Source: an uncultured virus (IMG/VR IMGVR_UViG_3300043446_000587)
Lineage: Duplodnaviria; Heunggongvirae; Uroviricota; Caudoviricetes
Length of the DNA stretch: 20,000 bases
Reading direction: 5' to 3' (one strand)
Virus record (IMG/VR): IMGVR_UViG_3300043446_000587
The notes under the pieces were generated by a model. That model did no database searches and had not been told where the DNA came from. It saw only the letters and a list, made by a program, of their open reading frames with translations. The position numbers and the translations under genes were made by a program. Below are positions 907-16,461 of the stretch, piece after piece. Each line of letters opens with the position of its first letter. The first letter of the stretch is position 1.

Positions 907-2475
907 ATGGAAGTAGTTGAAGACAGTGCAGTGCGCTTTCAGTGTCCACCTGAAATTGCGCAAGACATCACAAAGTACATCAAGAAGTCCGAGGTGCTTT
1001 CGTCGTCGAACGGTGTCGCTGATGTTGTGGTGTATTGGGGGCTTGAAGAGATGCAACGTCTCGCGCGCCTTACCCCTAGCACAATCAAAGTCCCATCCCC
1101 TATCGAGCGTGATTACAAGTGGCCCGGAATGTACACGCCTATGGACCACCAGCGAGATACCGCACGGTTTCTTTCTTTGCATCGTCGTGCGTTTTGCTTC
1201 AATGAAGCAGGCACAGGCAAAACATCAGCGGCTATCTGGGCGGCTGACTATCTGATGAATCAGGGTGTGGTGAAGCGTGTCCTAGTCATCTGCCCCCTAT
1301 CAATCATGCAAAGCGCATGGCAAGCTGATCTGTTCAAGACAGCTATGCACAGAACATGTGCTATCGCACACGGCACGAAGCGTCGTAAAGTGATTCAAGG
1401 CGGCTACGAGTTCGTCATCATCAACTATGACGGCGTGGCGGCTGAGTTTGAAACTATCAAAGCACATGGGTTTGACCTTGTCATCATCGACGAAGCAAAC
1501 GCATACAAGAACCCAAGCACCGTGCGTTGGAAGGTTCTTGCCAAGATGATTAATCCAGACACGTATTTATGGATGATGACCGGCACTCCTGCGTCTCAGT
1601 CACCCGAAGATGCTTTTGGTCTGGCGAAGTTGGTGAACCCAAACAATGTACCGAAATATAGAACTGCGTGGAAAGAGAAAGTCATGACGCAGATTACTCG
1701 GTTCAAGTGGGTCCCAAAGTCTGATGCGCGTGACACAGTGTTTAGCGCTTTGCAACCTGCTATCCGCTACGAGAAGGCGCAGTGCGTTGACTTACCAGAG
1801 CTGACACACCAGACACGAACAGTGCCGTTGAGTCCACAGGCGGCGAAGTATTACAAGGACCTTGTGCGAGAGATGCAGATTCAAGCCGCAGGTGAGACTA
1901 TCAGCACAGTCAATGCCGCCGCCGCACTTAGCCGCTTACTTCAATTGTCGGGCGGGGCTGTCTACACCGATGATGGCAATGTGGTCGAGTTCGATGTAGC
2001 CCCACGGTTGAGCGTCTTGCATGAGGTCTTGGAAGAGTCGCCACACAAGGTGATTGTGTTTGTGCCGTACAGACACACCCTGACTCTGATAAAAAATTAT
2101 CTGGACAAACACAGCGTCAGCAACGAAGTCATCTCCGGTGATGTATCAGCTAACGAGCGATCAGCAATCTTCAATCGTTTCCAAACAACGAATGACCCAG
2201 AAGTATTACTGATTCAACCGCAAGCCGCATCACATGGTGTTACTTTGACCCGTGCTGATACGGTTGTGTTCTGGTCACCCGTCATGTCTGTCGAGACATA
2301 CTTGCAGTGCATTGCGCGTATCGACCGTATCGGACAGAAAAATTCTATGACAGTCATCCACCTTCAAGGGTCCGAGGTGGAACGGCGTATGTACACGATG
2401 TTGCAAAACAAAGTGGACATGCACGAACGACTTGTGGACCTGTATCGAGAAGAAATGGAGGAAATCAATGGTTGA
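907..2475 (+). CDS. SNF2-family (superfamily 2) helicase/ATPase
   Basis: 522 aa. Q-motif-like PMDHQ, Walker A NEAGTGKT, LVICPLS, Walker B IIDEAN, motif III MTGTP, motif V HGVTLT, motif VI QCIARIDRIGQ. GGAG RBS at 899-902. Confidence 0.93.
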   Translation: MEVVEDSAVRFQCPPEIAQDITKYIKKSEVLSSSNGVADVVVYWGLEEMQRLARLTPSTIKVPSPIERDYKWPGMYTPMDHQRDTARFLSLHRRAFCFNEAGTGKTSAAIWAADYLMNQGVVKRVLVICPLSIMQSAWQADLFKTAMHRTCAIAHGTKRRKVIQGGYEFVIINYDGVAAEFETIKAHGFDLVIIDEANAYKNPSTVRWKVLAKMINPDTYLWMMTGTPASQSPEDAFGLAKLVNPNNVPKYRTAWKEKVMTQITRFKWVPKSDARDTVFSALQPAIRYEKAQCVDLPELTHQTRTVPLSPQAAKYYKDLVREMQIQAAGETISTVNAAAALSRLLQLSGGAVYTDDGNVVEFDVAPRLSVLHEVLEESPHKVIVFVPYRHTLTLIKNYLDKHSVSNEVISGDVSANERSAIFNRFQTTNDPEVLLIQPQAASHGVTLTRADTVVFWSPVMSVETYLQCIARIDRIGQKNSMTVIHLQGSEVERRMYTMLQNKVDMHERLVDLYREEMEEING

Positions 2476-2644
2476 CCCAAACAAGTTGCAGTATTTCACG
2501 ACCGCCGCATGGCTAAGAGGATACGCTTCTGGGCTAGATGAGTATCAACACAAAACTCTTATTTTTAAATTAAACCAAGCCGCAGACCTGCTTGACCACG
2601 TGTGGAGCAGATATGTGGAAGAAGAAGGGGAAAACAATGGCTGA
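2468..2644 (+). CDS. Hypothetical protein (58 aa, MVDPNKLQYF...)
   Basis: ATG at 2468 preceded by GGAGG. Overlaps the helicase stop and the next start by 8 nt each, consistent with translational coupling. Confidence 0.7.
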   Translation: MVDPNKLQYFTTAAWLRGYASGLDEYQHKTLIFKLNQAADLLDHVWSRYVEEEGENNG

Positions 2645-3050
2645 CGCCAACGCATTAGTAGAAACCTATTTGACGATTCGCCGTGAACGTGAAAAACTCA
2701 AGGCAGAATACGAATTACAAGACTCAGAGTTGAAAGGAGACATGGAGAAAATTGAAGCAACCCTGCTATCAATCTGTAACGATCAAAATGTCAGCGGATT
2801 GAAAACTCCGCATGGCACAGTAACACGGTCAGTCAAAGAGCGATTCTTCTGTACTGACTGGGACCACTTCAAAAAGTTTGTGGAAGCAGAAGGTTCAATC
2901 GACCTTCTAGAGCGCCGCATTCATCAGAAGAACTTCAAAGAATTCATGGCTGAGAGGCAAGGCGAAGGCTTACCTCCCGGCGTGAACGCTTTGCGTGAGT
3001 ATGACATTACTGTACGCAAGGCATCAGCAACCAGTGAAACATCAGTTTAA
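2637..3050 (+). CDS. Conserved phage hypothetical protein with N-terminal coiled coil (137 aa)
   Basis: ATG at 2637 after a purine-rich RBS. YLTIRRERE coiled coil, KTPHGTV, TDWDHFKKFV, LLERRI and LPPGVN motifs are of a type common in phage replication modules. Confidence 0.8.
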   Translation: MADANALVETYLTIRREREKLKAEYELQDSELKGDMEKIEATLLSICNDQNVSGLKTPHGTVTRSVKERFFCTDWDHFKKFVEAEGSIDLLERRIHQKNFKEFMAERQGEGLPPGVNALREYDITVRKASATSETSV

Positions 3051-3061
3051 GGAACAGTATT

Positions 3062-3919
3062 ATGGCAAACGAACTTGCTACCATTCTCGGCTCTAGCGCA
3101 CTCGTCGAACTCGGTCTCGACGAAGACACCCTTGCAGTTGCAGGCGGTGCTACCAAAGGCAACAAACGTATCTCTATTGAGGGCCGTGTGTTTCGCAAAA
3201 TTGTTGGTGGTAAAGAGCAAAGCGTTAACACAGACAACGCAATGAACGTGGTCATCGTCAAGATGGCACACGACGCATCGCGCACCTACTACAACCAGAC
3301 CTACAAGAAGGGCATCAAACTGTCGCCTGCCTGCTGGTCGAACGACTCTAAGACACCTGACCCAGAGGTGAAGAACCCCTGCGCTTCATCATGCGCTGAG
3401 TGCCCACAGTCCGTCAAAGGCTCTGGTCAAGGCGGTCAGGGTACTGCATGCCGTCTGTCATGGCGCACTGCCGTGGTCTTGCCCAACGACCCCGAAGGTG
3501 ATGTGTATCAGTTGGTGCTTCCCGCTACTTCCGCTTTCGGTAAAGAAGAAAACGGACGTTGGCCTTTCCGTCCATACATCCAGATGTTGGCAAACAACAA
3601 TGTGTCTGCTGGGCGCGTTGTGACCAAGATGGAGTTCGACATTAACAGCCCCGTGCCTCGCTTGTTGTTCTCTCCAGTGGCGGCAGTGCCACCTGAGATG
3701 CGCGACGTTATCGCCCGTCAAGGCAAGAGTTCTTCCGCTGAAGCCGCTATCAAGCTGACCGTCTACAAGACCGATGCTCAAGGCGCAGAAGAAGCAGAAG
3801 CACCTGCTGAGAAGGCAATGGATGAAGTTGCACAACCAACCAAACGCGAGACTGCTAAACCCGCCGCCGCTAAAGCGGACGACGTGCAAGACGTGTTGAA
3901 GAAATGGACTAAGAAGTAA
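3062..3919 (+). CDS. Putative ssDNA-binding/annealing protein with Cys cluster
   Basis: 285 aa. PACWSND...CAECPQ...ACR could bind metal. Low-complexity Ala/Glu/Lys C-terminal linker. Lies between helicase and primase. Function is inferred from context only. Confidence 0.55.
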   Translation: MANELATILGSSALVELGLDEDTLAVAGGATKGNKRISIEGRVFRKIVGGKEQSVNTDNAMNVVIVKMAHDASRTYYNQTYKKGIKLSPACWSNDSKTPDPEVKNPCASSCAECPQSVKGSGQGGQGTACRLSWRTAVVLPNDPEGDVYQLVLPATSAFGKEENGRWPFRPYIQMLANNNVSAGRVVTKMEFDINSPVPRLLFSPVAAVPPEMRDVIARQGKSSSAEAAIKLTVYKTDAQGAEEAEAPAEKAMDEVAQPTKRETAKPAAAKADDVQDVLKKWTKK

Positions 3920-4254
3920 TGGTCAGAACGTATAGCCCCGCACTCAGAGAAGCCGTGAAAGACCCCGTGTCGTACAGACTAGGGGTTGACCTTGCAAACA
4001 CGTGCATCAAAGCAAACTTGCCAGCGCTGTATGTGGCGCAGGTCTTTGACACATCACGGCAAACCATTCACGCATGGTTCAGAGGCGGGGTTATACGCGC
4101 CAAGAAGCGCCCACGCATAGAAGTGTTTATCAGATTACTGGAGGAGGATTTGGAAAAAGGTGTCTTGCCATGCAAGAACCTTCGGGATGCAAAAGCTTAC
4201 CTACGGGACATGATTGGTAAGCCAATCAAAAAAGCATCCAAAGCGTCGGACTAA
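3919..4254 (+). CDS. Putative helix-turn-helix DNA-binding protein
   Basis: 111 aa. ALYVAQVFDTSRQTIHAWFRG fits an XRE/Cro-type HTH. TAATG coupling to the upstream gene. Confidence 0.7.
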   Translation: MVRTYSPALREAVKDPVSYRLGVDLANTCIKANLPALYVAQVFDTSRQTIHAWFRGGVIRAKKRPRIEVFIRLLEEDLEKGVLPCKNLRDAKAYLRDMIGKPIKKASKASD

Positions 4255-4270
4255 TTTAGTCTATCTAAGG

Positions 4271-4295
4271 TGGCGGGGTCACCCCCGCCGTTTTT
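4271..4295 (+). terminator. Rho-independent terminator-like hairpin
   Basis: GGCGGGG 4272-4278, loop TCAC, CCCCGCC 4283-4289, then G and TTTTT 4291-4295. Confidence 0.75.
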
Positions 4296-4307
4296 GTCTC
4301 TGCGAAC

Positions 4308-7181
4308 ATGAACCAACAATTTTTCGAGAAAGTATTGCCAACGCAGGGCAACATTTGTGTAGTAGGAATCAAGGGCGAGACAGTGCGCCCACGTTTCTTT
4401 GACAACATACCAGCCGCCATAACTCAGATGGAGGCGTTGGACAAAGATGATTTCAACACATTCTTTGCGCTAGGCACATTTGAGGGGATGAAACGCCGCG
4501 CTGATGCTTGCATCTTCATGCGTTCGTTCTTTGTGGATTTAGACTGTGGCGAAAACAAACCATACCCCGCATGGGAAGATGGCTTGATCGCATTGATGCA
4601 GTTTGTATCTGAACAAGAACTGCCACCCCCTGTCATCGTCAACTCTGGGCGCGGTATCCACGCATACTGGCCCTTTACCGAAGAAGTACCTGCAACGGTG
4701 TGGAAGCCGTACGCAGAAAAATTCAAGCAATTCTGTCTCGATAGTGGCCTACACATCGACGAGTCAGTAACAGCAGACGCCGCACGTATCTTGCGTTCAC
4801 CCGGTTCTCGTAACCTCAAGGGTGAGCCATTGCCTGTTGAAGTCATTAACGACGCCGACCCCACAGTGTTTGATGTTTGGGTTGAGATGCTTGGCGAAGT
4901 CGAGAAGCCGTTTGATTTGTCTGATGTTGCAGGTGGCCTCGACGAAGATACCAAAGCCATATATGAAAAACTCAGCGGCAACTTTGAATACAACTTCAAC
5001 AAGATTGCTGTTGACAGCTTGGAAGGAAACGGCTGTGCTCAGATTAAATTCATCCTCGAAAACGCAGACAGTTGTCCGGAGCCACTCTGGTACGCTGGAA
5101 TTTCTGTCGCCATTAGGTGTGTTGATGGCGCTTCAGCCATACATGCAATGTCGGAAGGACACCCAAACTACGACGAAGCGGAAACGGAGCGGAAAGCCGC
5201 GCAATCATTACGAGAAGCGAAGTGGTCACATAGCTGTGACGCATTCGAACGAGAGAACTCAATCAACTGCCAAGGTTGCCCACACCGCACCCGCCTCGGA
5301 AAAGTTGGGCCTATCGGACTTGGCAAAGTCCTTAAAACCGTGGCAGACAGCCCTGCCACTGACGGAGGAACAGATGGAACAGTTAACTATGAAGTACAAG
5401 ATGAAGCGGAATCAGTTCGGGACGACCCGCCTGCCAAAACGATACAGTTCCCCGATTACCTCAAACCCTTCTCAAGAGGAGTCAACGGAGGCATCTACTG
5501 GACACCCCCACTCCGATCAACCAAAAAAGGAATGGTCCAAGACCCAGACGAGCTGATTATCCCGTTCACGGTCTATCCGATTGAGCGCATGGAGAACCCA
5601 CTTGAGGGCGCTTGCATGCTGATGCAGGTTGAATTGCCGCTTGACGGTAACAAAGAGTTCATCATCAAGATGCGTGACGTTGGTGCGATTGACCGACTCA
5701 AGAACATCTTGGCAGATAACAGTATTCCGTATGAGCCTACTAACGCACCGAAGATAGCTAGCTATCTGATGAAGTGGGCGACATTCTTAACCAATGCAAA
5801 GAGAGCGAGTCTTATGCGTATGCAACAAGGTTGGACCGACGACAAGTATGAATCGTTTGTGCTCGGTCAAAACGAATACTTCCGCAACGGTGAAATCCGT
5901 CACACGCCACCCACAATCCGTTCGCGCAACGTTGTGCGTAACATCCATACAAGCGGGACGCTTGAAGGTTGGCAGAAGTCTATCAATATGTTTGGCGACC
6001 CCGGCTACGAGTGGCATGCGTTTGCAGTGCTGTGCGGCATGGCATCCCCTCTGATTGAATTCACCAACGTCAACGGTGTGATTCTGTCTTTGTATGGCGA
6101 AACAGGCTTTGGTAAAACGGGCGCACTGTATGGTGGCTTGAGCATCTGGGGACACCCCGAACGCTTGGCTGTGTACGACGCCACATCCAACGCGCTTATT
6201 GGGCGCATGATTACCTGCAAGAATATTCTTTACGGCTTGGACGAGCAGGGCAACCGTGATGGGCACACCATCTCGCACATCGCACACAACATCTCATCAG
6301 GGCAACCCAAACTGCGCATGTCTGGTTCAGATAACTCTGAGCGCGATGTGGCGTTCGTGACCAAGTTGCTTGCGATCATGACGACCAACCACCGTATGAA
6401 AGACATCATGTCTACATACAAGGGCGATACCAAAGCGGAAGAGATGCGGGTGCTTGAACCCAACTTGCGCCGCCCAAATCAGGCTGGCTATGAACTCACA
6501 GACGAGCGCGGATACGAGATGTTTGAAATGCTCAAGATGAACTACGGACACGCAGGTCCAATCCTCATTCAAGAGTACCTGCGTATCGGCCCCGTAAAAC
6601 TCAAAAACGAAATTAAGACACGGTATCTTCAGACAGGCGACAGATTCTCCAACAGCGCCGAGTACCGCTTCCTATCAAACTTAAGAACGGTGACTGCCTA
6701 TGCAGGAGAGATTGCCTCAAATCTTGGACTCATTAACTGGGACTTGGACAGAGTTTTTAGCGTCATCGACCACGACCTTGAAAACATCATCGCTGGAAAA
6801 GCTGACGATGAAAACGACCGTGCGGAAAACATCCTTGGTGACTTTATTAGTAAAAACATTCAAAACGCATTGGTACTCAAAGACTTCAAAGTTGTGATCG
6901 AACCGAAGCAAGCGTTGAACATCCGTGCCGAAGTGGACGAAGGCGAGATGTGGATTTCCACCTCGGCTATGAAAGAGCATCTCAAGTTGCAACGTCTGAG
7001 TGTTAGCTGGTTTGAAGAGCAACTGCACAAGCGTGGCATGCTGAAATGCAAAGAGCGCAAGCAGATGGCGGCAGGCTGGAAGTCAGGTCTTGGGCACACC
7101 AACATGCAGGCGTACAAACTCAACATGAAGATTGACCACCTGTTCAAGCATGACGAAACCGAAACAGATCAGACCGCTTGA
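4308..7181 (+). CDS. Primase-helicase fusion: N-terminal AEP/RepB-like primase, Cys-rich middle domain, C-terminal DUF927-like P-loop helicase
   Basis: 957 aa. FFVDLDC (DxD), VNSGRGIHAYW, D..VTADAARILR.PG; QQGW motif; Walker A GETGFGKT; Walker B-like YGLDE. Confidence 0.88.
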   Translation: MNQQFFEKVLPTQGNICVVGIKGETVRPRFFDNIPAAITQMEALDKDDFNTFFALGTFEGMKRRADACIFMRSFFVDLDCGENKPYPAWEDGLIALMQFVSEQELPPPVIVNSGRGIHAYWPFTEEVPATVWKPYAEKFKQFCLDSGLHIDESVTADAARILRSPGSRNLKGEPLPVEVINDADPTVFDVWVEMLGEVEKPFDLSDVAGGLDEDTKAIYEKLSGNFEYNFNKIAVDSLEGNGCAQIKFILENADSCPEPLWYAGISVAIRCVDGASAIHAMSEGHPNYDEAETERKAAQSLREAKWSHSCDAFERENSINCQGCPHRTRLGKVGPIGLGKVLKTVADSPATDGGTDGTVNYEVQDEAESVRDDPPAKTIQFPDYLKPFSRGVNGGIYWTPPLRSTKKGMVQDPDELIIPFTVYPIERMENPLEGACMLMQVELPLDGNKEFIIKMRDVGAIDRLKNILADNSIPYEPTNAPKIASYLMKWATFLTNAKRASLMRMQQGWTDDKYESFVLGQNEYFRNGEIRHTPPTIRSRNVVRNIHTSGTLEGWQKSINMFGDPGYEWHAFAVLCGMASPLIEFTNVNGVILSLYGETGFGKTGALYGGLSIWGHPERLAVYDATSNALIGRMITCKNILYGLDEQGNRDGHTISHIAHNISSGQPKLRMSGSDNSERDVAFVTKLLAIMTTNHRMKDIMSTYKGDTKAEEMRVLEPNLRRPNQAGYELTDERGYEMFEMLKMNYGHAGPILIQEYLRIGPVKLKNEIKTRYLQTGDRFSNSAEYRFLSNLRTVTAYAGEIASNLGLINWDLDRVFSVIDHDLENIIAGKADDENDRAENILGDFISKNIQNALVLKDFKVVIEPKQALNIRAEVDEGEMWISTSAMKEHLKLQRLSVSWFEEQLHKRGMLKCKERKQMAAGWKSGLGHTNMQAYKLNMKIDHLFKHDETETDQTA

Positions 7182-7368
7182 TGAGCCGTTGTGGGATTTG
7201 CCATACGAGGTGATGGAAGTTGGCGACAGCTTCTTTATACCGACTCTGAAGCCCGCATACTTAACGTATGTGATTGATACGACCTCCAAAAAGGCTGGCT
7301 ACAAGGTCAAGGTGTTTACCGTGACTGAGAAGGGCCTTCTTGGGGTTCGTGCTTGGCGGGTTGGTTAA
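7150..7368 (+). CDS. Small conserved phage protein (72 aa), possibly DNA-binding
   Basis: ATG at 7150 overlaps the primase end. LPYEVMEVGDSFFIP...GVRAWRV is a pattern common in small phage proteins. Confidence 0.75.
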   Translation: MTKPKQIRPLDEPLWDLPYEVMEVGDSFFIPTLKPAYLTYVIDTTSKKAGYKVKVFTVTEKGLLGVRAWRVG

Positions 7369-10300
7369 GGCTTCATTCCGAAGTCTTCTTTGAACGTCAA
7401 GAGCAGGTCGCGTTTGATTGCGTTCTGGTAAAGCATCAACTCGTCGATCTGCTCCTTGCGTTCGCGTGGCGTAATCTCGTCACTAGGCATAGCGCGCACC
7501 TCGTTGAGCTGTTGGCGCACCTTACGCAAGCCACGGTTGATCTGCTTGTTGTAATACTTCACAATGTCAGCTTCATCCGGATTGTTAGACACATACTCGT
7601 CGTACATGTCTGGGCGGCTTTCCTTCATCGTGTTGAGCTTCTGTTCGATGCCCTTGATACGATCTTCCACCCGTGCAAATTCACGCGCATCAATGTTGGA
7701 CTTAGCACCAACGAATCCACGCACAAACGGCACTTCGTTGCGTACATCGAAGTCTTTGCCACCACCCATGACCTGAGTCAAGCCGTAGCCCATCGAGGCA
7801 ATCTGAGCCATACCGTCGATATAGTTACTAGCCAAGAACATCATGGTGTTCGGGTTCATGTCCACCGAGCCGTTGGTAATATCAAACAGCAAGCGCGCAG
7901 CATCCTTGTACATGCTTGGTGTGCTATCACTGCCCATGTAGGCGTCACCGTAGCGTGACTGACGGTCGTTGTAGATAGAGCGGCCCAGACCATCGAGGTT
8001 CATCACAAACTCAAACAGCGGACGAGTCAACGATGGGTTCAGCGTGTCAGCGATAAAGGGCAGTGGCTTCTCAAACATGTTGATCTTGGAAATGGGCAAC
8101 GGCAGATAGTTGTCCATCATGATCTGGCGGATGTTGTCGAAGTTGGTTGCCAGAGAGTCCCGACCCATAGTCATAGCTGCCATCTGTGCGCCAATAGCCG
8201 CAAACGCGCCGTGACCGAAGCCCCAACGAATCTGGATTGGGTTATCAGACCAAGGCACAAAGAACCGTGCGTTGCGGGTCCAGCGCGCTGTGTCGTCGAT
8301 AGCAACCTTGTTGCGGCCTTCTTCATCGTCACCAGCCATCATGTATGACATGTAGTACATCATCATGCCCATGCCGACCAGACTCATAATCATGTGACGG
8401 GCATTCTCAGCTTCACGCTTGAGCTGCTTAAGCGCCTCATCAGTACGGCGGCTGACTTCAGCATCAGTCAAATTCTTGTCGCTGTTACGCAGGAACTGAC
8501 CGTACTCTGCGCGGAACATCTCTTCACGCTCCTTGATGATTCCCTTGCCGGGAAGTAACGTGCCACTCACGCCGTACAGACGCAAGGCAGGCATGATCGC
8601 TTCAATCGCACGATACGCACCAGTAGCCGCAGGACGGAAGAACATGAACAGCGCACCCGCTGCCTTGCCCCATTCACCAGTCTGCTCAAAGTTAGCCAAG
8701 TTTTTAGTCTCGGCAGCGGCTTTCACTTTTGCGTCAGCCAGAGCTTCAGCATCGGATTTGAACCGTCCGCTCTTCTTGTTTTCAGCGAAGTATTGAGAAC
8801 GCAAGGCGCGATACGCCCCGACGCGGCTGGAGAGTTCCAGCGTGTCGTTATACATGTCTACATAGTTGTCAACGAACTCTTTGGCACGAGTGCCCTTGCC
8901 ACGGTTCAAGTCACGCGACAGTTGTTCTTCGGCGCCACGGGCAGACACGGCTTGCAGGTATGACACCTTGCCACCCATATCCACATACTCTTTCAGGTCG
9001 CGGTAGTACTGCTGTTCTTTTGTAAGCTGGTCGTAGGGTTTGGTCCCACCAGCCAAGCGGTTCAATTCTGCGTTGTTACCTTTACCAGACAAGTACGCAA
9101 ACTTAGCCGACTTAGCAATACCGCCGTTGAAGAAGATGTCATCAGCAGTTTGACGAATCAACTGGAAAGACTTGCTTGGGCCGTACTTAGCACCAAGGTT
9201 CCATGCGTTGGTCAGCAAGTCAGTCAAGAAGTTCACTGGACCGAACGCAGGGTTGTAGCGAGTGTGGGTCTGACCCATCAAGCTGGTGTAGCGGTCAAGC
9301 GTGTCGATGATTGGGTTTGCTGTGCGATATGTACGACGGATAGCCTCTGCCTCCGCAGCGGAGGTCAGGTTGATAACCGCGATGCGTCCATCTGGCTCAT
9401 AGTGGAAGATTTTGCCGGGACCAGCAAGGTCAGCCTTTTCCACGTTGTCGATGTAGCGGTCACGGAAGTCAATGTACTTGATCTCACCCTTCAGGATGCC
9501 AGACTCGACGGCGTTCTTAATAGCCAGCGTCAGGTCAGAGCGACCAGCGCGCAGCGCAGAGCCACTTGCATCAGCCATCACTTGCAAGATAGGGTTTTCA
9601 GATTCAGACTTACGACCCTCAAACGCATTGGTCATGTCTTGGAACTCACCGCCGATCAAACGAGAACCCATATCCAATTGATCGTCGATTGTGCGCTGGC
9701 CCTTGCGACCTTTGAAGGGGATATAGTTTTTATACCCGTAGAACTTGGAAATATTCTCAACAGGCTGCGACCAATAGTTGGCCTCTTGGTTGAGGTCCTT
9801 GGTCTGGTCCATGACTTTGCTCAAAGACTTCCATACGGCATCAATTTCTTTCTGGAGCTCTGGACGGTCAAACTGTCTGCGAATGTCAGCAATCTCATCC
9901 GCGCTACGACCCTCTGCGCTCACGCCGTCACCGATGACGCTGTAGTTGGCGTTGTTCACATCGTATGTCTCGTCGTTTGTTTTGGGCGCGCGCATGTCTG
10001 GATTGTTCTTGGCGTCGTTGACCACGGTCTCAAGTGCCGTACGCAGCTGCGCGATGGTCTTGGCATCGTATTTTTTATTCTCTGCCAATAGACTCTTGAT
10101 CTCGCGACGCAACGCTTCGGCGCTGTAGGTCTTGCCCTTGTACTCATCACCCATGATGCTGTCCAGACGATACACCTTGCGGGTGTCATCCAGCGGAACA
10201 CTGAACAAGAACTTCACCATACGACGCTCAGGCTCGTGGCGAGCTTCCATAATCAAGTGCAGTTCTGCGAGCGCATCGTTAACAGAGATGCCACGCTTCT

Positions 10301-13300
10301 CGGCGTAAGCACCAATGTCGCCCTCCAGCGCCTCGGTCAGATAGCGCATGCGGGAGTTGAAGAGGTTCACACCCCTGCCGATGGCGAATGTAAGCTGGTC
10401 GTAAACGTTGTTCAGTTTGGGGCCAAGGCGCTCAACCATGCCTAGACGGTCAGCAACCTGCTGGATACGGCGAATACCTTCTCGGCTGTTTGCAAACTTG
10501 CGCACCATAAGGTTGTAGCCCTCGTACGACATCAAGTTCTTAATCAGCGACTTAGCACCGCGCTCTTTAATCTGCACCTGCTTCTTGTAACCTTCACGGC
10601 GTTGGTCTGACGACTGGGTTGGCATGACAGGCGCAGCCATAGTTGACCCCAGAGGAGCCATGTCGATACCACCTTTGGGCGCAGACACAACATAGTCAAA
10701 CGCTTGGAAGGCTTCCAACAGAGCGGACGTACCGCCTTGGAACTTAGCAATGTCAACGCCTAGCAACTCAGCAATGCTACGGACAAAGTTTCTCCATGCG
10801 CTAACTTCTCCGGGGACCAGAGAGTCTTCACGTGGGATGGCAATGTTATTGAGTTCAGTCTGGAATGCCTCGTTGGTCATCGCCTCGCTCAAGAACTCAT
10901 ACACGTTTGTGTAGGCATCTGGGAACTTTTCGCCAAGCTTGTTCTTGGTGATGTTCATCAGGTATGTGAGGTGCTCCGCCGCATCTTCTTGTTTGTCGGA
11001 CAGCTTGTTTTGTGCCTTGGTGTAATCGTTGAGCACCTTGACAGACGCAGCGTGAACCAGCTCGTGCAACATGGTGCGCTCAGTCTTGCCAGCCTCAGTG
11101 ACACGAATCACATCTGCCTTGGGGTCGTACTCTGCCACGCGTCCGTCTGGGAGCGATCTGACAAACTCTAATTTAGTATTCAGCTTGAGCTGACCAATAC
11201 GCTTAGCCACCTCTCTCAGAATAGGAGAGACATTCTTTGATGTCTTGAGATAGTTGAGCGCTGCTAGCAGATTGCCATTCTCGACTTGTTTCTTGATCTG
11301 GTTTGGCAGCTCGGCTTCTTTGACCTTGGACTCAGGCTTGCCGTGGACTTCATCCGCAATAGCAGCCGCCGCTGCGTCAAACGACTCAGCGCTACCGTCC
11401 TTGGTCATCTCAACCACCCGTGCTTGTTGGGCGGGGGTCAGTTCACCAAACGCAGGGACTTGGCGTTTAGCGTTGTCAGCCTGCTCGTTGTGGTACTCGC
11501 GTGACGCTTCAAACTCGTCGATGAAGTCTTGGCTGACTTCTGGCGCGGCTTGTTCTTCTACTGCTGGGGCAGTTTGTCCTTGCAGTGCGGCTTTTACGCG
11601 CTCAAACAGCGCCTTGTATTCTTCTGTATTGGTTACAGGAGCTGTACCTAGAGCGTTGTAAAGGTTGTCGCCAAGGTTCTTTTTGATAGTTTCTTCAGGC
11701 GTGTCTTTAGCATTCCAGTACGGAACACCATTACCGTCAAAACCTATGCTCAGTACCTTTTCTTTGCCTTTGCTATTCAGGAGGCGCAGCGCAATGTTTT
11801 GCGCTTGTTCTTGGTCAATAAGCTCAGTGACTCGTGTTTTACCGTTTGCTAGCGTAGTATCCATTTTGTGATGGATAAACCCAGACTTGTCCTGCCATGA
11901 ATTTTCATCTTCAGGCGCATTTGGATTTGGACGCCAATAGTTTTCTGGCTTTGTTGCATCAGTAGACGGTGGAGGCGCAGAAAAGTCAGGGACGTCTGTA
12001 AGCTCTTCTACTGGAGCGGGTGTGATTCCTTTTCCTTTAGTAGCACCTGCAACATTCGGTCCAGTAGATACCACTCCAGTTCCGTCAGATGGTTGAGGTC
12101 CTCCGGCGGGGGGTGCAACATCACTGGCTGGTGCAGGTACGACAGCGCCTTCTCCACCTGCTGTGGTGTCAGTTTGTCCAACATTTGGTGCTCCTTGCGT
12201 TTTAGAGAGCGCAAACTCATATAGGCGTACCTGTTCCTTTTTGCGTGCAATCTTTTTAAGAATATCTTCTGGCGGCTTTGTACCGCTATCGAGATAAGTG
12301 TTTACTTGCCCTTCCAGTGAAGACAATTCTTTTTTTAATTTTTCACTTTTGGCAGCAACGCTTTTGACTACATCAGGCGTGGCTTTACCTTCGGCAACAG
12401 CTACTAGCGTGTTGAACTGGTTAAAGTTGGTTTCAGCAATCTTGACGTGCGTACCCTTTTGGCCCTTTTCCAAGAAAGTGCCAAGCTTCTTTTCCGCCGC
12501 ATCGCGCAAGTCATACAGTTCACCCATCGGGGTAGCTTCTGCACGGATGTCAGGCGCTGTTTCACGTGGAACTTCTGCCGCAGTTGTTTCACCAGCAAGA
12601 ATCTTGGCGAACTCTGTTTGGTCTGGAGCCTCGGGCTGTGCGCCCAACATGACGTCCTCTGCCTGTGCACGCTCTTGCCCACGCTCTACGAAACGACCGG
12701 GAACGCCCAACGCGCCACCAAGCACCGCGCCGCCGATAAAGTTTTCCAAATACTCTTTGCGTGCGGCTTCGTCAGTAATATTCAGGCCAGCTTGCAAGCG
12801 TTCAAACACCTGCTGCGCGGCTTCAGTTGTACCTTCAATACCAGCGGTCTTGCCAGTTTTGAGGGTGTAGTCCACCACAGTATCTTTAAGAGTACGCTCA
12901 AGAATCTGCTTGGCTTGCGCTTCAGTCAACTTCTCGCCAACAGAGCCAAACAGTTTGCCCAGACCGGGGACCATACGCAATGACAGTGTGTCTAGGGCCG
13001 CTTGAGGGATAGACGCTAGCACGGCGTTACCAAGGTCAGTCTCAGACAGACGCTTGCCTTCTTGTATCTGACGAGACAAGTTTGAGCCAGTAAATTGTGC
13101 AGCGGACGCCAGACCAGTAGCGCCAAGCGTAGCCAGACCAGCGGGAGCAACAGCAGCGGCGGCAACAGGAGCGGCAATATAGGGCAGTGAACCACCAGCC
13201 AGCTCTTTGAACTTGGTCCAAGGTGCTTCATCCCAACCTTCTTCGGTAGGCTTGAATGTGCGTTTTTGGTATTCCTCTTGCTCGGCGCGAATCTGCTCGG

Positions 13301-13559
13301 CTTTCTCTGGAGAGATGATGCCAGTTCTACCTGCTAGGGTAGCAAGGTCCTCGTACGCACCAGACGCACCAGCTTTTAAAGCGGGAATAAAACCCGACTC
13401 GCCTTGCGGTTCGACTGGTTTAGGCGGCGCAAAATCAAGCGGCTCCATAGCGCTGAAGTGCGCCATCGCCAAGTTACGCAGGGACGTTTTACTTAATCCC
13501 TTGGGAGCCTCCAGATCGTAAACCTTGCCGTCTGGACCTCTTACGGTGTACGTTGCCAT
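7365..13559 (-). CDS. Large internal virion/DNA-ejection protein (polyvalent type) with zincin-like HExxH domain and LPD38-like C-terminus
   Basis: 2064 aa with AAGGA RBS. Hydrophobic Gly/Ala helices near the N-terminus; MLHELVHA followed by YEFLSEAMTN; C-terminal hydrophobic helix followed by WTRNARFFVP...IRWGFG...RPLFEFVMNLDGLGRSIY. Last gene of the virion operon. Confidence 0.75.
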   Translation of the reverse strand: MATYTVRGPDGKVYDLEAPKGLSKTSLRNLAMAHFSAMEPLDFAPPKPVEPQGESGFIPALKAGASGAYEDLATLAGRTGIISPEKAEQIRAEQEEYQKRTFKPTEEGWDEAPWTKFKELAGGSLPYIAAPVAAAAVAPAGLATLGATGLASAAQFTGSNLSRQIQEGKRLSETDLGNAVLASIPQAALDTLSLRMVPGLGKLFGSVGEKLTEAQAKQILERTLKDTVVDYTLKTGKTAGIEGTTEAAQQVFERLQAGLNITDEAARKEYLENFIGGAVLGGALGVPGRFVERGQERAQAEDVMLGAQPEAPDQTEFAKILAGETTAAEVPRETAPDIRAEATPMGELYDLRDAAEKKLGTFLEKGQKGTHVKIAETNFNQFNTLVAVAEGKATPDVVKSVAAKSEKLKKELSSLEGQVNTYLDSGTKPPEDILKKIARKKEQVRLYEFALSKTQGAPNVGQTDTTAGGEGAVVPAPASDVAPPAGGPQPSDGTGVVSTGPNVAGATKGKGITPAPVEELTDVPDFSAPPPSTDATKPENYWRPNPNAPEDENSWQDKSGFIHHKMDTTLANGKTRVTELIDQEQAQNIALRLLNSKGKEKVLSIGFDGNGVPYWNAKDTPEETIKKNLGDNLYNALGTAPVTNTEEYKALFERVKAALQGQTAPAVEEQAAPEVSQDFIDEFEASREYHNEQADNAKRQVPAFGELTPAQQARVVEMTKDGSAESFDAAAAAIADEVHGKPESKVKEAELPNQIKKQVENGNLLAALNYLKTSKNVSPILREVAKRIGQLKLNTKLEFVRSLPDGRVAEYDPKADVIRVTEAGKTERTMLHELVHAASVKVLNDYTKAQNKLSDKQEDAAEHLTYLMNITKNKLGEKFPDAYTNVYEFLSEAMTNEAFQTELNNIAIPREDSLVPGEVSAWRNFVRSIAELLGVDIAKFQGGTSALLEAFQAFDYVVSAPKGGIDMAPLGSTMAAPVMPTQSSDQRREGYKKQVQIKERGAKSLIKNLMSYEGYNLMVRKFANSREGIRRIQQVADRLGMVERLGPKLNNVYDQLTFAIGRGVNLFNSRMRYLTEALEGDIGAYAEKRGISVNDALAELHLIMEARHEPERRMVKFLFSVPLDDTRKVYRLDSIMGDEYKGKTYSAEALRREIKSLLAENKKYDAKTIAQLRTALETVVNDAKNNPDMRAPKTNDETYDVNNANYSVIGDGVSAEGRSADEIADIRRQFDRPELQKEIDAVWKSLSKVMDQTKDLNQEANYWSQPVENISKFYGYKNYIPFKGRKGQRTIDDQLDMGSRLIGGEFQDMTNAFEGRKSESENPILQVMADASGSALRAGRSDLTLAIKNAVESGILKGEIKYIDFRDRYIDNVEKADLAGPGKIFHYEPDGRIAVINLTSAAEAEAIRRTYRTANPIIDTLDRYTSLMGQTHTRYNPAFGPVNFLTDLLTNAWNLGAKYGPSKSFQLIRQTADDIFFNGGIAKSAKFAYLSGKGNNAELNRLAGGTKPYDQLTKEQQYYRDLKEYVDMGGKVSYLQAVSARGAEEQLSRDLNRGKGTRAKEFVDNYVDMYNDTLELSSRVGAYRALRSQYFAENKKSGRFKSDAEALADAKVKAAAETKNLANFEQTGEWGKAAGALFMFFRPAATGAYRAIEAIMPALRLYGVSGTLLPGKGIIKEREEMFRAEYGQFLRNSDKNLTDAEVSRRTDEALKQLKREAENARHMIMSLVGMGMMMYYMSYMMAGDDEEGRNKVAIDDTARWTRNARFFVPWSDNPIQIRWGFGHGAFAAIGAQMAAMTMGRDSLATNFDNIRQIMMDNYLPLPISKINMFEKPLPFIADTLNPSLTRPLFEFVMNLDGLGRSIYNDRQSRYGDAYMGSDSTPSMYKDAARLLFDITNGSVDMNPNTMMFLASNYIDGMAQIASMGYGLTQVMGGGKDFDVRNEVPFVRGFVGAKSNIDAREFARVEDRIKGIEQKLNTMKESRPDMYDEYVSNNPDEADIVKYYNKQINRGLRKVRQQLNEVRAMPSDEITPRERKEQIDELMLYQNAIKRDLLLTFKEDFGMKP
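12008..12184 (-). CDS. Candidate overprinted small gene nested out of frame in the 2064-aa gene (58 aa)
   Basis: AAGGAG (12196-12191), 6 nt spacer, ATG (12184); TAG at 12010-12008. Product MLDKLTPQQVEKALSYLHQPVMLHPPPEDLNHLTELEWYLLDRMLQVLLKEKESHPLQ. Confidence 0.65.
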   Translation of the reverse strand: MLDKLTPQQVEKALSYLHQPVMLHPPPEDLNHLTELEWYLLDRMLQVLLKEKESHPLQ

Positions 13560-13573
13560 ACTTGGTTTCCTTT

Positions 13574-16000
13574 TTACGAGAACAGGTCAACGTCAACGTC
13601 GTCGGTATCTTTAGATTTTGATTCAGATAAAGCGCCGGGCAAGAAACGACCAACGTTTTGTTTCTCTAGATGGCGTAAGAACTGTTCCTGTGTCATACCT
13701 TTATCCTTGAGCTCTTTTGGTACTCGACCACCATAGACTTTATCAAAGATATTTAATGCATGAGTAGCCGCTTTTTCTTGCGCGCGGCCTGTTGCTTTGA
13801 ACACTTCCAAGTCCATGCGGTTGCCTGTCGCGCCAGCACGAGCTGACAAGATGCCTTCCTTTACCTTGTTCGAACGAATCTGCTCGTTGAGCTGTGCTTG
13901 TTGCAGCTTGCGGGTTTCAAGGCTGTTAGCCAAGTTAGCGGCAGTCTGCTGGTCGCCTTTCTTGAGCGCCACTTCGTACTTGGTCATCTCAAGATTCATC
14001 TTCATGGCGTTGTCTTTAGCAGCACGTGCCAGACGATCTGTCTCGGCGGCAGACTCGTACAGTGTTGGCGATGCAGCAGCAGCGCTCTCCAACAGGCCAC
14101 CCAGACCGGGGCGGCGCGCTTGACCGGGACGTGCGGCATTTGCAGCCATATTGAAACCAAATGCGGCTAGAGCTTTACCCAAGCCAGCTTTTTTGATTTC
14201 TTCTGAGTCCTTGGCATTTGCTAGCAGCGTGTCTTTAATACTCTTGAGCTGGTCCTTAGACGAGCTTGTCAGTTTGTCCAAGAACTTGTTGTAGTTATCT
14301 TCGAACGTGTCGCCTTGTCCCATTGCTTCTGCAATACCACGGGCTTCTGCCACCGAAGGATGCCCGTCAGCTTTAGGTTTGGATTTTCCAGCGCCCGTAT
14401 CTTCACTCAGCGTACCCATGTAATCTTCACGGCGGGTGGCTGTAGCACGATCAAATTTATCTGCTACGGCGGCAGGTTCTGACTTTGCTTCTGGTTTACT
14501 AGGACGGCTAAAACCGTAGCCGGGGTACGACACAATATGTTTAGGAATATCGGCAAGGAAGCTACCCAAGGAGCGCATTTGTTCGCCATAAGACATGGGC
14601 TTACCTTCGTCGCCGCCTTCAGCAAACGCAACCATGCCACCACTAGCAGCACGGATCATGTTGTCTTGGGACTCCGCAGGCAGCTGGTCAAACGCATAGC
14701 CTAGACCGCTGTTGATAGAAGCATTCTGCGCGCGCATCTCGTCGTTGCTAGCCAAAAGCTGGTCAACATAGGCCGCTGTCTCAAAGTCACGGCGCGCCAG
14801 AGCAGCCTGTTTAGCGCGGAACAAAGCCTCGGTATTGCCACGAATACTGTCGAGCTTGTCTTCAATAAAGTCCGAACTAGTAACAGAGCCACGGTCTCCG
14901 GCATAAGTCTTAATCTCGCCGCCTTTGGCTTTATTAGCGGCGTTGTACAGACTAGACAAGCCCAGAGCACCGACACCTAGACCGGCGGCCTGACCCAGCA
15001 AACTGCCGGGAGCTTGATACATCTGAGTTGTAGACTGCTGACCCAATGGCAAGCCACGGATCATATCGGACATGAACCCCAACTGTTTGTATGGGTAGTT
15101 CTGCTCGTCCATGAAGTCTTGATAAGCCTGAGTCAATCCTTGTTGACGTAGCGCCTGCTGTTGCGCGCCGTATGCAGCCTGCAACTTGTTGATGTCCATG
15201 CCTTGCTGGAACTGCTGACTGCCTAGAGCGCCGAGCTGACCTGCACCGGTAAGTGCGGTCTGAAGTCCTTGCATGCCAATGTTTGCTCCAAACTGACGTG
15301 ACTGTTCGCCAAGCTGTTGAGCCTGCATAGCACGTTGTTGGTCGGCGTTGAACTGATTGGCGGCTTGCGTGTAAGCGTCCTGCAAGCCTTTTGACATGAT
15401 GTCGCCCTGCTGAATGCCCAAGTTACGCTGGCGCTCGGCCTCAACCAAAGCTGAACGGGAGCCACCAAACGCACCTTGGCCTACGGCACGAGCCGCATTC
15501 TGCTGCCCCATAATATCAGACGCACGTTGCGCTTCACGCAACTGGGGAGCCAAAGCCTGCTGAATAAACGGACTCATGTACTGAGCTGCTTCTTGCCCGC
15601 CAAACTGCCCGCCGTAGAACTGACCGCCTTGATAGTTTTGCCCCAGCCCACGCAAAGCAGCTTGCCCAGCAACTTGACCGCCCAAGCCAGTCAAACCAGA
15701 TGTCTGCATACCGGCAGCTTGCTCCTGCGCCTGCTGTTGTAAGGGACTAAATCCAGCAAAACGGGGCTGGTCGTATCTTTGGTATGGTTTTTCTGAAAGC
15801 GCCGCTGTTTTTTCTAGGGTGCTCTTAGCATATGGGCGCGCCCACTCAGGTAGTTCGTTAATCTGAGTTTGTGTTCCAGTGGAAGAACCTCCGCCGCCCC
15901 CGCCACCGCCAAGAACCATGCCGCCATCCGCTTTGCGGTAGGTAGCGCTGTCTCCAAGGGGTTCACCCATAGCATAGAGTTGTCTGCGAGAGTAGCTCAT
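13574..16000 (-). CDS. Internal virion/DNA transfer (ejection/pilot-like) protein
   Basis: 808 aa, Gln/Gly/Ala rich and helical. G8 run near the N-terminus, LPEWARPY, YMSPFIQQAL and GAFGGSR motifs. Located in the virion operon with ATGA coupling to the GNAT. Confidence 0.7.
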   Translation of the reverse strand: MSYSRRQLYAMGEPLGDSATYRKADGGMVLGGGGGGGGSSTGTQTQINELPEWARPYAKSTLEKTAALSEKPYQRYDQPRFAGFSPLQQQAQEQAAGMQTSGLTGLGGQVAGQAALRGLGQNYQGGQFYGGQFGGQEAAQYMSPFIQQALAPQLREAQRASDIMGQQNAARAVGQGAFGGSRSALVEAERQRNLGIQQGDIMSKGLQDAYTQAANQFNADQQRAMQAQQLGEQSRQFGANIGMQGLQTALTGAGQLGALGSQQFQQGMDINKLQAAYGAQQQALRQQGLTQAYQDFMDEQNYPYKQLGFMSDMIRGLPLGQQSTTQMYQAPGSLLGQAAGLGVGALGLSSLYNAANKAKGGEIKTYAGDRGSVTSSDFIEDKLDSIRGNTEALFRAKQAALARRDFETAAYVDQLLASNDEMRAQNASINSGLGYAFDQLPAESQDNMIRAASGGMVAFAEGGDEGKPMSYGEQMRSLGSFLADIPKHIVSYPGYGFSRPSKPEAKSEPAAVADKFDRATATRREDYMGTLSEDTGAGKSKPKADGHPSVAEARGIAEAMGQGDTFEDNYNKFLDKLTSSSKDQLKSIKDTLLANAKDSEEIKKAGLGKALAAFGFNMAANAARPGQARRPGLGGLLESAAAASPTLYESAAETDRLARAAKDNAMKMNLEMTKYEVALKKGDQQTAANLANSLETRKLQQAQLNEQIRSNKVKEGILSARAGATGNRMDLEVFKATGRAQEKAATHALNIFDKVYGGRVPKELKDKGMTQEQFLRHLEKQNVGRFLPGALSESKSKDTDDVDVDLFS

Positions 16001-16461
16001 AGTGGCTCCGTATTCAAAACTTTCGAGAATAGCTTGTCGGTAAATGTGTACCCAAGATATTCAAACAAACGAGAATTGTCGAGGAAAACCTTTGTGTGCA
16101 TGATGACACGGTTCACCCCTTCTTTTTTAAGCACGTCTTCTGCGAACTGGAACAGACGGAGTCCCACACGTCCCTTGCGGTACTCTTTCTTCAGATAATA
16201 AATATCCTCAAAGGCAGTCAAGCAAGTTCTGTAATGTAAGTGTGGTTGCACAATAAAAATTGCGTAACCAATAAGCTGATTATCCTCTCTAACCGTGATG
16301 CAGCGCAACATGCCAGCCACGTGCATTCGTCCAAACGCTTCGTAATCTGGGGCTAGAGGGAAGTCCTTGCAGGGGCAAAGCTCTTCGTAGTGTGACGGCA
16401 GTATCTCCCTGAGGGCGTCAATGAAGTCGCCCGGGTCTTCAGTTTGATACGTTATCGTCAT
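15997..16461 (-). CDS. GNAT-family N-acetyl/acyltransferase
   Basis: 154 aa. LIGYAIF strand, EDIYYLKKEYRKGRVGLRLF (acyl-CoA binding motif A), SRLFEYLGY (motif B). Confidence 0.85.
   Translation of the reverse strand: MTITYQTEDPGDFIDALREILPSHYEELCPCKDFPLAPDYEAFGRMHVAGMLRCITVREDNQLIGYAIFIVQPHLHYRTCLTAFEDIYYLKKEYRKGRVGLRLFQFAEDVLKKEGVNRVIMHTKVFLDNSRLFEYLGYTFTDKLFSKVLNTEPL

Follow-up and report, generated by a model that had tools for sequence, protein, structure and literature searches.

Results

The analysed window is a 20,000-nucleotide stretch of DNA from an uncultured virus of the class Caudoviricetes, in which the helicase and primase genes with their neighbours occupy the plus strand (907-7368) and converge on a late gene block on the minus strand. 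This block includes a giant gene (7365..13559, minus strand) encoding 2064 amino acids, which profile matches identify as a polyvalent internal virion protein of the ejection type. Its N-terminal part matched PHROG 6958, a virion structural protein (E 8e-7), the profile of the giant family matched PDB chain 9sfn_G, 'Internal virion protein' (E 8e-13), and Pfam placed an LPD38 domain at residues 1758-1935 (7755..8288, minus strand; E 7e-15). Residues 832-836 (11052..11066, minus strand) form an HExxH motif, labelled as metallopeptidase-type after PMC5512222, of which H832, E833 and H836 were invariant in 69 aligned giants. With an LPD domain and an HExxH motif in the product of a late virion block, the giant qualifies as a polyvalent virion protein. 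Such proteins with LPD38/LPD39 and MPTase domains are described in PMC5512222, and gp47 of phage phi24B, which has LPD38 and a metallopeptidase, was detected in virions and has been put forward as an ejection protein (bioRxiv 10.64898/2026.04.10.717836); the window giant resembles both in having LPD38 together with HExxH. An AlphaFold2 model of its last 1071 residues (pLDDT 68) had no match in PDB. The variable middle parts of several relatives (L114, L152, L164, L193, L171) carry ART-PolyVal, GP88, YkuD-like or HATPase domains, none of which was detected by Pfam in the window giant.

Upstream of the giant gene lies a gene of 808 codons (13574..16000, minus strand), the first half of whose product matched PHROG 4287, a DNA ejection protein (E 1e-15); the ejection-gene profile had no match in PDB. 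Many relatives have two genes at this position (about 350 and 400-850 amino acids), and both fused and split counterparts were present among the best 80 of 566 ejection-gene loci. We infer that the 808-codon gene is a fusion of two separate genes. The same block contains a GNAT acetyltransferase-like gene (15997..16461, minus strand; PF00583, E 4e-9; PHROG 1249) and a virion structural gene (PHROG 3287). The order of GNAT, ejection and giant genes is one which we take to resemble that of T7 genes 13-16. On the plus strand, a 58-codon gene with a Shine-Dalgarno (SD) sequence and ATG (2468-2644) overlaps the helicase stop codon and extends 53 bases into a 152-amino-acid ORF listed from a TTG, for which its own first ATG is the likelier start.

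A further gene of 58 codons (12008..12184, minus strand) is nested within the giant gene and read in its +1 frame, from an ATG at 12184-12182 to a TAG at 12010-12008. The SD sequence AAGGAG (12191..12196, minus strand) stands six bases before the ATG. The original prediction had quoted this same ORF, AAGGAG-N6-ATG on the same strand in another frame, and its interval 12008..12196 includes the ribosome site. Contigs from run X1, the possible source run, spanned the nested stretch with zero differences and zero gaps. An in-frame ATG 12 codons upstream (12218..12220, minus strand) has no clear SD in the window, and the matching position is an SD-bearing start in relatives that lack the usual ATG. 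A promoter-like site was looked for near the nested start and not found.

The nested gene encodes an acidic protein ending in Q, for which AlphaFold2 predicted helices at residues 7-18 and 35-54 (mean pLDDT 86.8, 122 alignment rows). Of the two amphipathic helices originally read from the sequence, both were thus predicted, but only the first is clearly amphipathic (moment 0.48; 0.29 for the second). Residues L5, E11, A13, L17, P27, L30, L33, W38, L41, L45, L48 and E51 are conserved at 93-99% in the family. The predicted helix-loop-helix exposes a face of leucine and tryptophan and has an invariable ...L/V-H/Q terminus. The final residue was H or Q in 122/122 members, a W stood 20 residues from the C-terminal end in 117/122, and the mean net charge of the 122 members was about -5. 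Cysteine is absent from the window protein and no cysteine is conserved across the 122 members. The window protein has no hydrophobic N-terminal stretch, and no lipoprotein signal peptide with a lipobox cysteine, by which o-spanins of the Rz1 family are recognised, was found in it.

A single-sequence protein search with the small protein returned nothing, whereas a 14-row profile found relatives. Pfam and PHROG gave no family for the window protein, and across the 122 members any one family was matched by at most one (Pfam) or two (PHROG) of them. No match below E 0.14 was obtained in a PDB sequence search, no usable match in the ESM Atlas for the window protein or another member (P0250), none at E 0.001 with Foldseek against BFVD and PDB, and none with Z of 5 or more in a fold search (best 4.9). 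These null fold searches show neither novelty nor an absence of relatives. T7 gp6.7 did not occur among the sequence or fold matches, short helical proteins giving weak searches. A tblastn search of GenBank phages with the small protein yielded no match, and a literature search, with most subscription journals outside its scope, found no paper on this small-protein family. The word 'overlap' is absent from the main text of PMC5512222, whose supplements might list such ORFs, and no nested gene turned up in the passages on these proteins there or in the phi24B preprint.

Considered from the window alone, the nested ORF is not more than would be expected by chance. Among 500 synonymous shuffles of this gene, 13.8% contained an out-of-frame ORF of at least 50 codons with AGGAG and ATG; the gene shuffled was the giant. 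The linker of the primase gene also holds a 60-codon SD-ATG ORF in the +1 frame (5374-5556, plus strand); since it was missing from 18 distinct homologous linkers, it was rejected as a gene, is probably a product of chance and serves as an internal negative control. Once relatives are compared, the 58-codon ORF exceeds chance.

When the small protein alone was the query, 20/20 viral loci carried its gene embedded in a long ORF, always in the same frame. The small-protein profile was found in 102 of 103 sources (window included), which gave 66 distinct contexts, and in 66/66 of these the gene was nested in the same frame. An SD sequence with ATG, GTG or TTG preceded 96/98 family genes, as expected if homologues were likewise nested with their own ribosome site; in the distinct contexts, G stood at -10 in 64/66 and at -9 in 58/66. 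The two exceptions, L122 (ATA) and L214 (ACA), have no canonical start and are possible cases of non-AUG initiation. In L122 (6968-7174), compared with L123, ATA stands for ATG behind a very strong SD and the frame is intact. Nine genes with ATA, CTG or GCG at the usual start have an SD-ATG 12 codons upstream; as they belong to two lineages only, they do not represent nine events. One locus (L102) was dropped as a false match, L119 was not confirmed as a family member, and L233 is likewise absent from the confirmed members. Gene length in the family is 57-59 codons. In protein databases, a word search gave 143 relatives, and 127 clusters were obtained at 50% identity, a few of which look like chimeric or chance matches; nine proteins, among them the giant, were excluded from the small-family profile. 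Two single records join the family sequence to other protein parts and may be assembly errors: P0193, on a 1.2-kb contig, joins it to the host frame, and P0222 to a longer N-terminal part that looks helix-turn-helix-like by eye.

Conservation begins at the ribosome site and drops at the stop codon of the nested gene, with nucleotide identity of 0.56-0.82 from SD to stop versus 0.27-0.41 outside. By codon position of the small frame, identity across the 66 distinct contexts was 0.68/0.78/0.57, so that the wobble position of the host frame is its best conserved and the first position its worst. Protein identity in the small frame (64%) exceeded that in the host frame (41%), and did so in 2144/2145 pairs. 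In 33 disjoint pairs, pN/pS was 0.28 in the small frame versus 2.02 in the host frame, and lower for the small frame in 33/33. These comparisons support purifying selection on the nested product, and the claim that selection acts mainly on the nested frame is borne out by them. The ORF thus lies wholly inside a same-strand gene with an open host frame, has its own conserved start and is under purifying selection, which places it among embedded genes. The nested gene is shown by these alignments to be old and conserved, with a ribosome site of its own, and the earlier view that it encodes a real small protein finds support in its nested homologues, SD sequences and starts. That standard annotation would miss it proved partly right: gene callers report the protein on many short contigs, and it probably escapes them chiefly in unbroken giant ORFs. 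In one case (L101:3691-3864) the 18.6-kb contig bearing the nested gene and its giant was binned into a Polaromonas metagenome-assembled genome; unless mis-binned, it hints weakly at a betaproteobacterial host.

The giant N-terminus and the upstream ejection gene were used as queries to remove ascertainment bias. With the former, 13 loci were obtained, of which 5 carry the nested gene, 7 lack it and 1 is cut short before the site. With the latter, the best 80 of 566 loci were taken, 28 were dropped for too little downstream DNA and 52 were kept, their giants being identified by a positional rule. The small gene was present in 22/52 of these loci (19/48 clusters at 90%), always nested in +1 and never free, and it was the only widely shared SD-led nested ORF across them. 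None of the 36 records without the gene at the locus carried it elsewhere (0/6 for near-complete ones); the same search did detect it in G002 and G003. With 30 of the 52 loci lacking it and no copy elsewhere in these 36 records, the small gene is not an essential part of the module and is accessory. No small-family match was found in G001, the genome record nearest the window (50% complete), or within the 42 kb examined of Pseudomonas phage Rollin, which shares the primase.

Presence of the gene followed the C-terminal type of the giant, at 22/25 for two types and 0/27 for the rest of the 52 loci, the types being BLAST clusters and the third class lumping all others, some of them incomplete. 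Nine independent pairs on the ejection-gene tree gave a median p of 0.004 for this link, and the 71-row tree implies 17 changes in gene presence. The link is partly mechanical, because the gene rides inside the giant during giant swaps. Near-identical upstream ejection genes stand beside different giant types in L150/L146, L202/L191 and L177/L179, which indicates that close relatives exchange entire giant genes. The small gene also occurs with other LPD38-type giants (L114, L122-L134). Other SD-led +1 ORFs of 72-77 codons were seen in variable parts of giants (L171:9564-9785; L150:16901-17131; L189:13471-13689; also L204 and L208); they have a protein-like composition and no Pfam match, and could be further nested genes.

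The host-frame reading of the nested DNA (12006..12185, minus strand; giant residues 459-518) is a spacer between the N-terminal domain of the giant and its variable middle. G, P, A, T and V make up 75% of it, versus 35% of the whole giant, 28% of the preceding 60 residues and 38% of the following 60. No other 59-residue window of the giant is as rich in these residues, the best elsewhere reaching 59%; the low-complexity linker originally described over the nested interval was therefore confirmed. In genomes of equal GC (0.34-0.40), third positions of the small frame were G in 52% and T in 6% for 8 nested copies, versus A in 53% and T in 27% for 6 free-standing copies. At positions where T makes a host stop, T was found in 0/137 cases in nested and 33/115 in free copies, the zero being partly due to the definition of 'nested'. 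The host frame is thus not neutral: G-rich, T-poor wobble positions are forced and leave a stop-free spacer. From the wobble bias and the avoidance of T in nested copies, the giant is probably read through across the nested gene, with small residues preferred there. It had been proposed that selection acts on the nested frame above a mere linker; this holds for where selection mainly falls, but the host frame is also selected for an open spacer of small residues.

A profile of this host-frame reading, or shadow, was used to search giants at the protein level. Among the best 120 of 868 giants sharing the window C-terminal module, it matched 103/106 proteins of at least 1750 residues, at 41-94 bits, and none of the 14 shorter ones. 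Two of the three long giants that miss the shadow begin downstream of the site; the third has no such explanation. Giants without the nested gene scored at most 10.3 bits.

All searches, distant members included, gave 108 distinct genes in 162/234 sources, of which 100 are nested and 8 free. The free copies all lie in the same late block, five between two ejection genes (L120, L121, L219, L220, L221/L222) and three directly after the stop codon of the giant (L227-L229). The most distant family members came without genomic context, so that free-standing copies may be undercounted. A search with P0245 as query yielded no locus. One genome (G002, 98% complete) has a single copy, which is free; its giant is of the window C-terminal type without a nested copy, and no shadow was found in its N-terminal part. 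In a tree from 57 columns, midpoint-rooted and without outgroup, the free copies share a supported clade (97/92) with nested ones, which suggests that they may have escaped from the nested state. Relatives without the nested ORF in which the host stretch persists, the mark of strict de novo overprinting, were not found. Because the spacer is missing, too, from giants that lack the gene, the segment acts as a 60-codon cassette, and 'embedded cassette' fits better than strict de novo overprinting. The original term, overprinted, thus holds for nesting in another frame but is not supported in its strict sense, with 8/108 copies free and no spacer trace in giants without the gene. Contigs of other phages from three runs matched only a block of 35-50 bases where the nested gene begins (window 12146-12197), with unlike flanks; this block is a possible crossover point for module swaps.

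Discussion

Taken with its relatives, the 58-codon ORF is almost certainly a real gene. The opposite reading, in which there is no gene and a conserved host linker, through its composition, keeps a chance ORF open, could appeal to the frequency of comparable ORFs in the shuffled giant gene and to the host-frame base bias, which would cut the frequency of stops in the +1 frame. It has next to no probability left, since the small frame is the more conserved in nearly all pairs, SD, start, length and stop are conserved alike, and free-standing homologues exist in which the host frame is closed by 3-8 stops. The comparative data have already refuted it.

Embedded genes as such are already known. 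The closest parallel in arrangement is lambda Rz1 in Rz, a spanin gene embedded in +1 over a mutationally silent host linker, for which embedded and separated forms exist (PMC5295617). The gene described here shares with it the position wholly in the +1 frame, over a linker, and the occurrence of nested and separate forms. Unlike in Rz/Rz1, where a lysis protein is the host, the host here is a virion protein of 2064 residues, the small gene is optional, and its product has neither lipoprotein signal nor cysteine; on these last grounds the product was rejected as a spanin. With phiX174 E in D it shares the same-strand internal +1 overlap, the commonest kind of overlap (PMC8227390). The host frame in E/D is the older and conserved one, whereas in the giant it is the nested frame that is conserved and encodes a folded product, the host frame being disordered and present only with the nested gene. 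T7 gp6.7, of 88 residues, is a core adaptor that sits between the portal and the core proteins; in its ejected form a long loop connects two short helices (PMC11784390). The nested product is similarly small, has two helices and a loop, and belongs to a phage with large ejected core proteins; gp6.7, in contrast, is encoded by a separate gene and gave no sequence or fold match.

The main functional clue is position: every copy, nested or free, lies beside ejection genes. The late-operon position shows timing and not partnership. We propose that the nested gene would be translated by internal initiation on the late mRNA, simultaneously with the ejection proteins, and that its product would be, in the least sure step of this model, an accessory part of the internal core/ejection module. 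As an adaptor or chaperone it could bind ejection proteins, or the portal, during head loading or ejection, as T7 gp6.7 does, and certain giant types might require it while the rest can do without. By this analogy, the small protein may well serve the ejection module, a reading to which we give about an even chance. The divergence of the small gene followed that of the two ejection genes and the giant C-terminus (rho 0.36, 0.40 and 0.35; partial rho 0.20, 0.24 and 0.14; 35 loci, pairs not independent), with 0.03 for the giant N-terminus. As the values for both ejection genes and the C-terminus are nearly equal, no single partner is named by them. A dedicated partner for one C-terminal module is weakened by this equal tracking and by the several C-terminal types with which the gene occurs. 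A complex prediction for the small protein with giant residues 1125-2064 scored 0.00 and is no evidence either way. The partly mechanical link with giant type, the occurrence with other LPD38 giants and the equal divergence tracking favour an accessory adaptor or chaperone of the module.

Other functions deserve comparison with this one. The product might be a built-in inhibitor, akin to an immunity protein, that binds a harmful part of the giant, either the HExxH peptidase or the C-terminal module, and silences it within the producing cell until packaging. Nesting would guarantee co-expression, polyvalent proteins carry effector domains (PMC5512222), and the gene is nearly universal with the window giant type, as judged from the shadow (103/106), and is kept free where such a giant lacks the nested copy (G002). 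We nevertheless hold an inhibitor to be unlikely. Many HExxH giants are without the gene, some gene-bearing giants (L114, L115) are without HExxH, and one small family accompanies at least three C-terminal types and very different middle domains, while immunity proteins usually change along with their toxin. A host-directed factor, made late or co-ejected, seems similarly doubtful. It could act in superinfection exclusion or anti-defence, or as a C-terminal-tail mimic docking a host protease or polymerase, the late block providing timing or a ride in the virion. The patchy presence on the ejection-gene tree would suit such an accessory gene, as would the negative charge, and the constant H/Q end with W at a fixed distance suggests a free C-terminus docking into a pocket. 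The strong conservation, however, extends over phages of very different base composition, and hence probably of different hosts, which is less typical of arms-race proteins; the small protein has no membrane anchor, and 0/8 free copies lie in an early or accessory region.

A mainly cis-acting role, whether in tuning ribosome traffic on the giant, in a +1 frameshift joining its N-terminal part to the small frame, or as a recombination anchor in the swapping of giant modules, is considerably less probable still. The 35-50 bases at the gene start, which are all that contigs of other phages share with it, the shuffling of the giant N-terminal domain relative to the nested gene and the passage of P0193 from the host frame into the small frame would fit it. 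P0193 is, however, a single record that may be an assembly error, and the amino-acid constraint with free synonymous change, the confident fold and the free copies require a protein. The adaptor or chaperone of the ejection module therefore remains our preferred reading.

These data offer clean evolutionary evidence for a protein family, still without a name, that is mostly hidden inside giant virion genes. In annotated giant proteins, the spacer shadow offers a ready marker of the hidden gene, and nested and free copies at equal base composition provide a natural experiment on the cost of dual coding. A bolder proposal, which we regard as rather improbable as a whole, is that of a portable 60-codon cassette encoding an adaptor together with a spacer and moving among unrelated giants, its product acting as a hidden fourth core protein in loading or piloting them and its 5' end the crossover point of giant modules, overlooked across many uncultured aquatic phages. 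How large ejection proteins are packed and released is posed as an open question in the phi24B preprint (bioRxiv 10.64898/2026.04.10.717836). If the small protein is a core adaptor or chaperone, it would bear on the packing and release of ejection proteins of 200-300 kDa.
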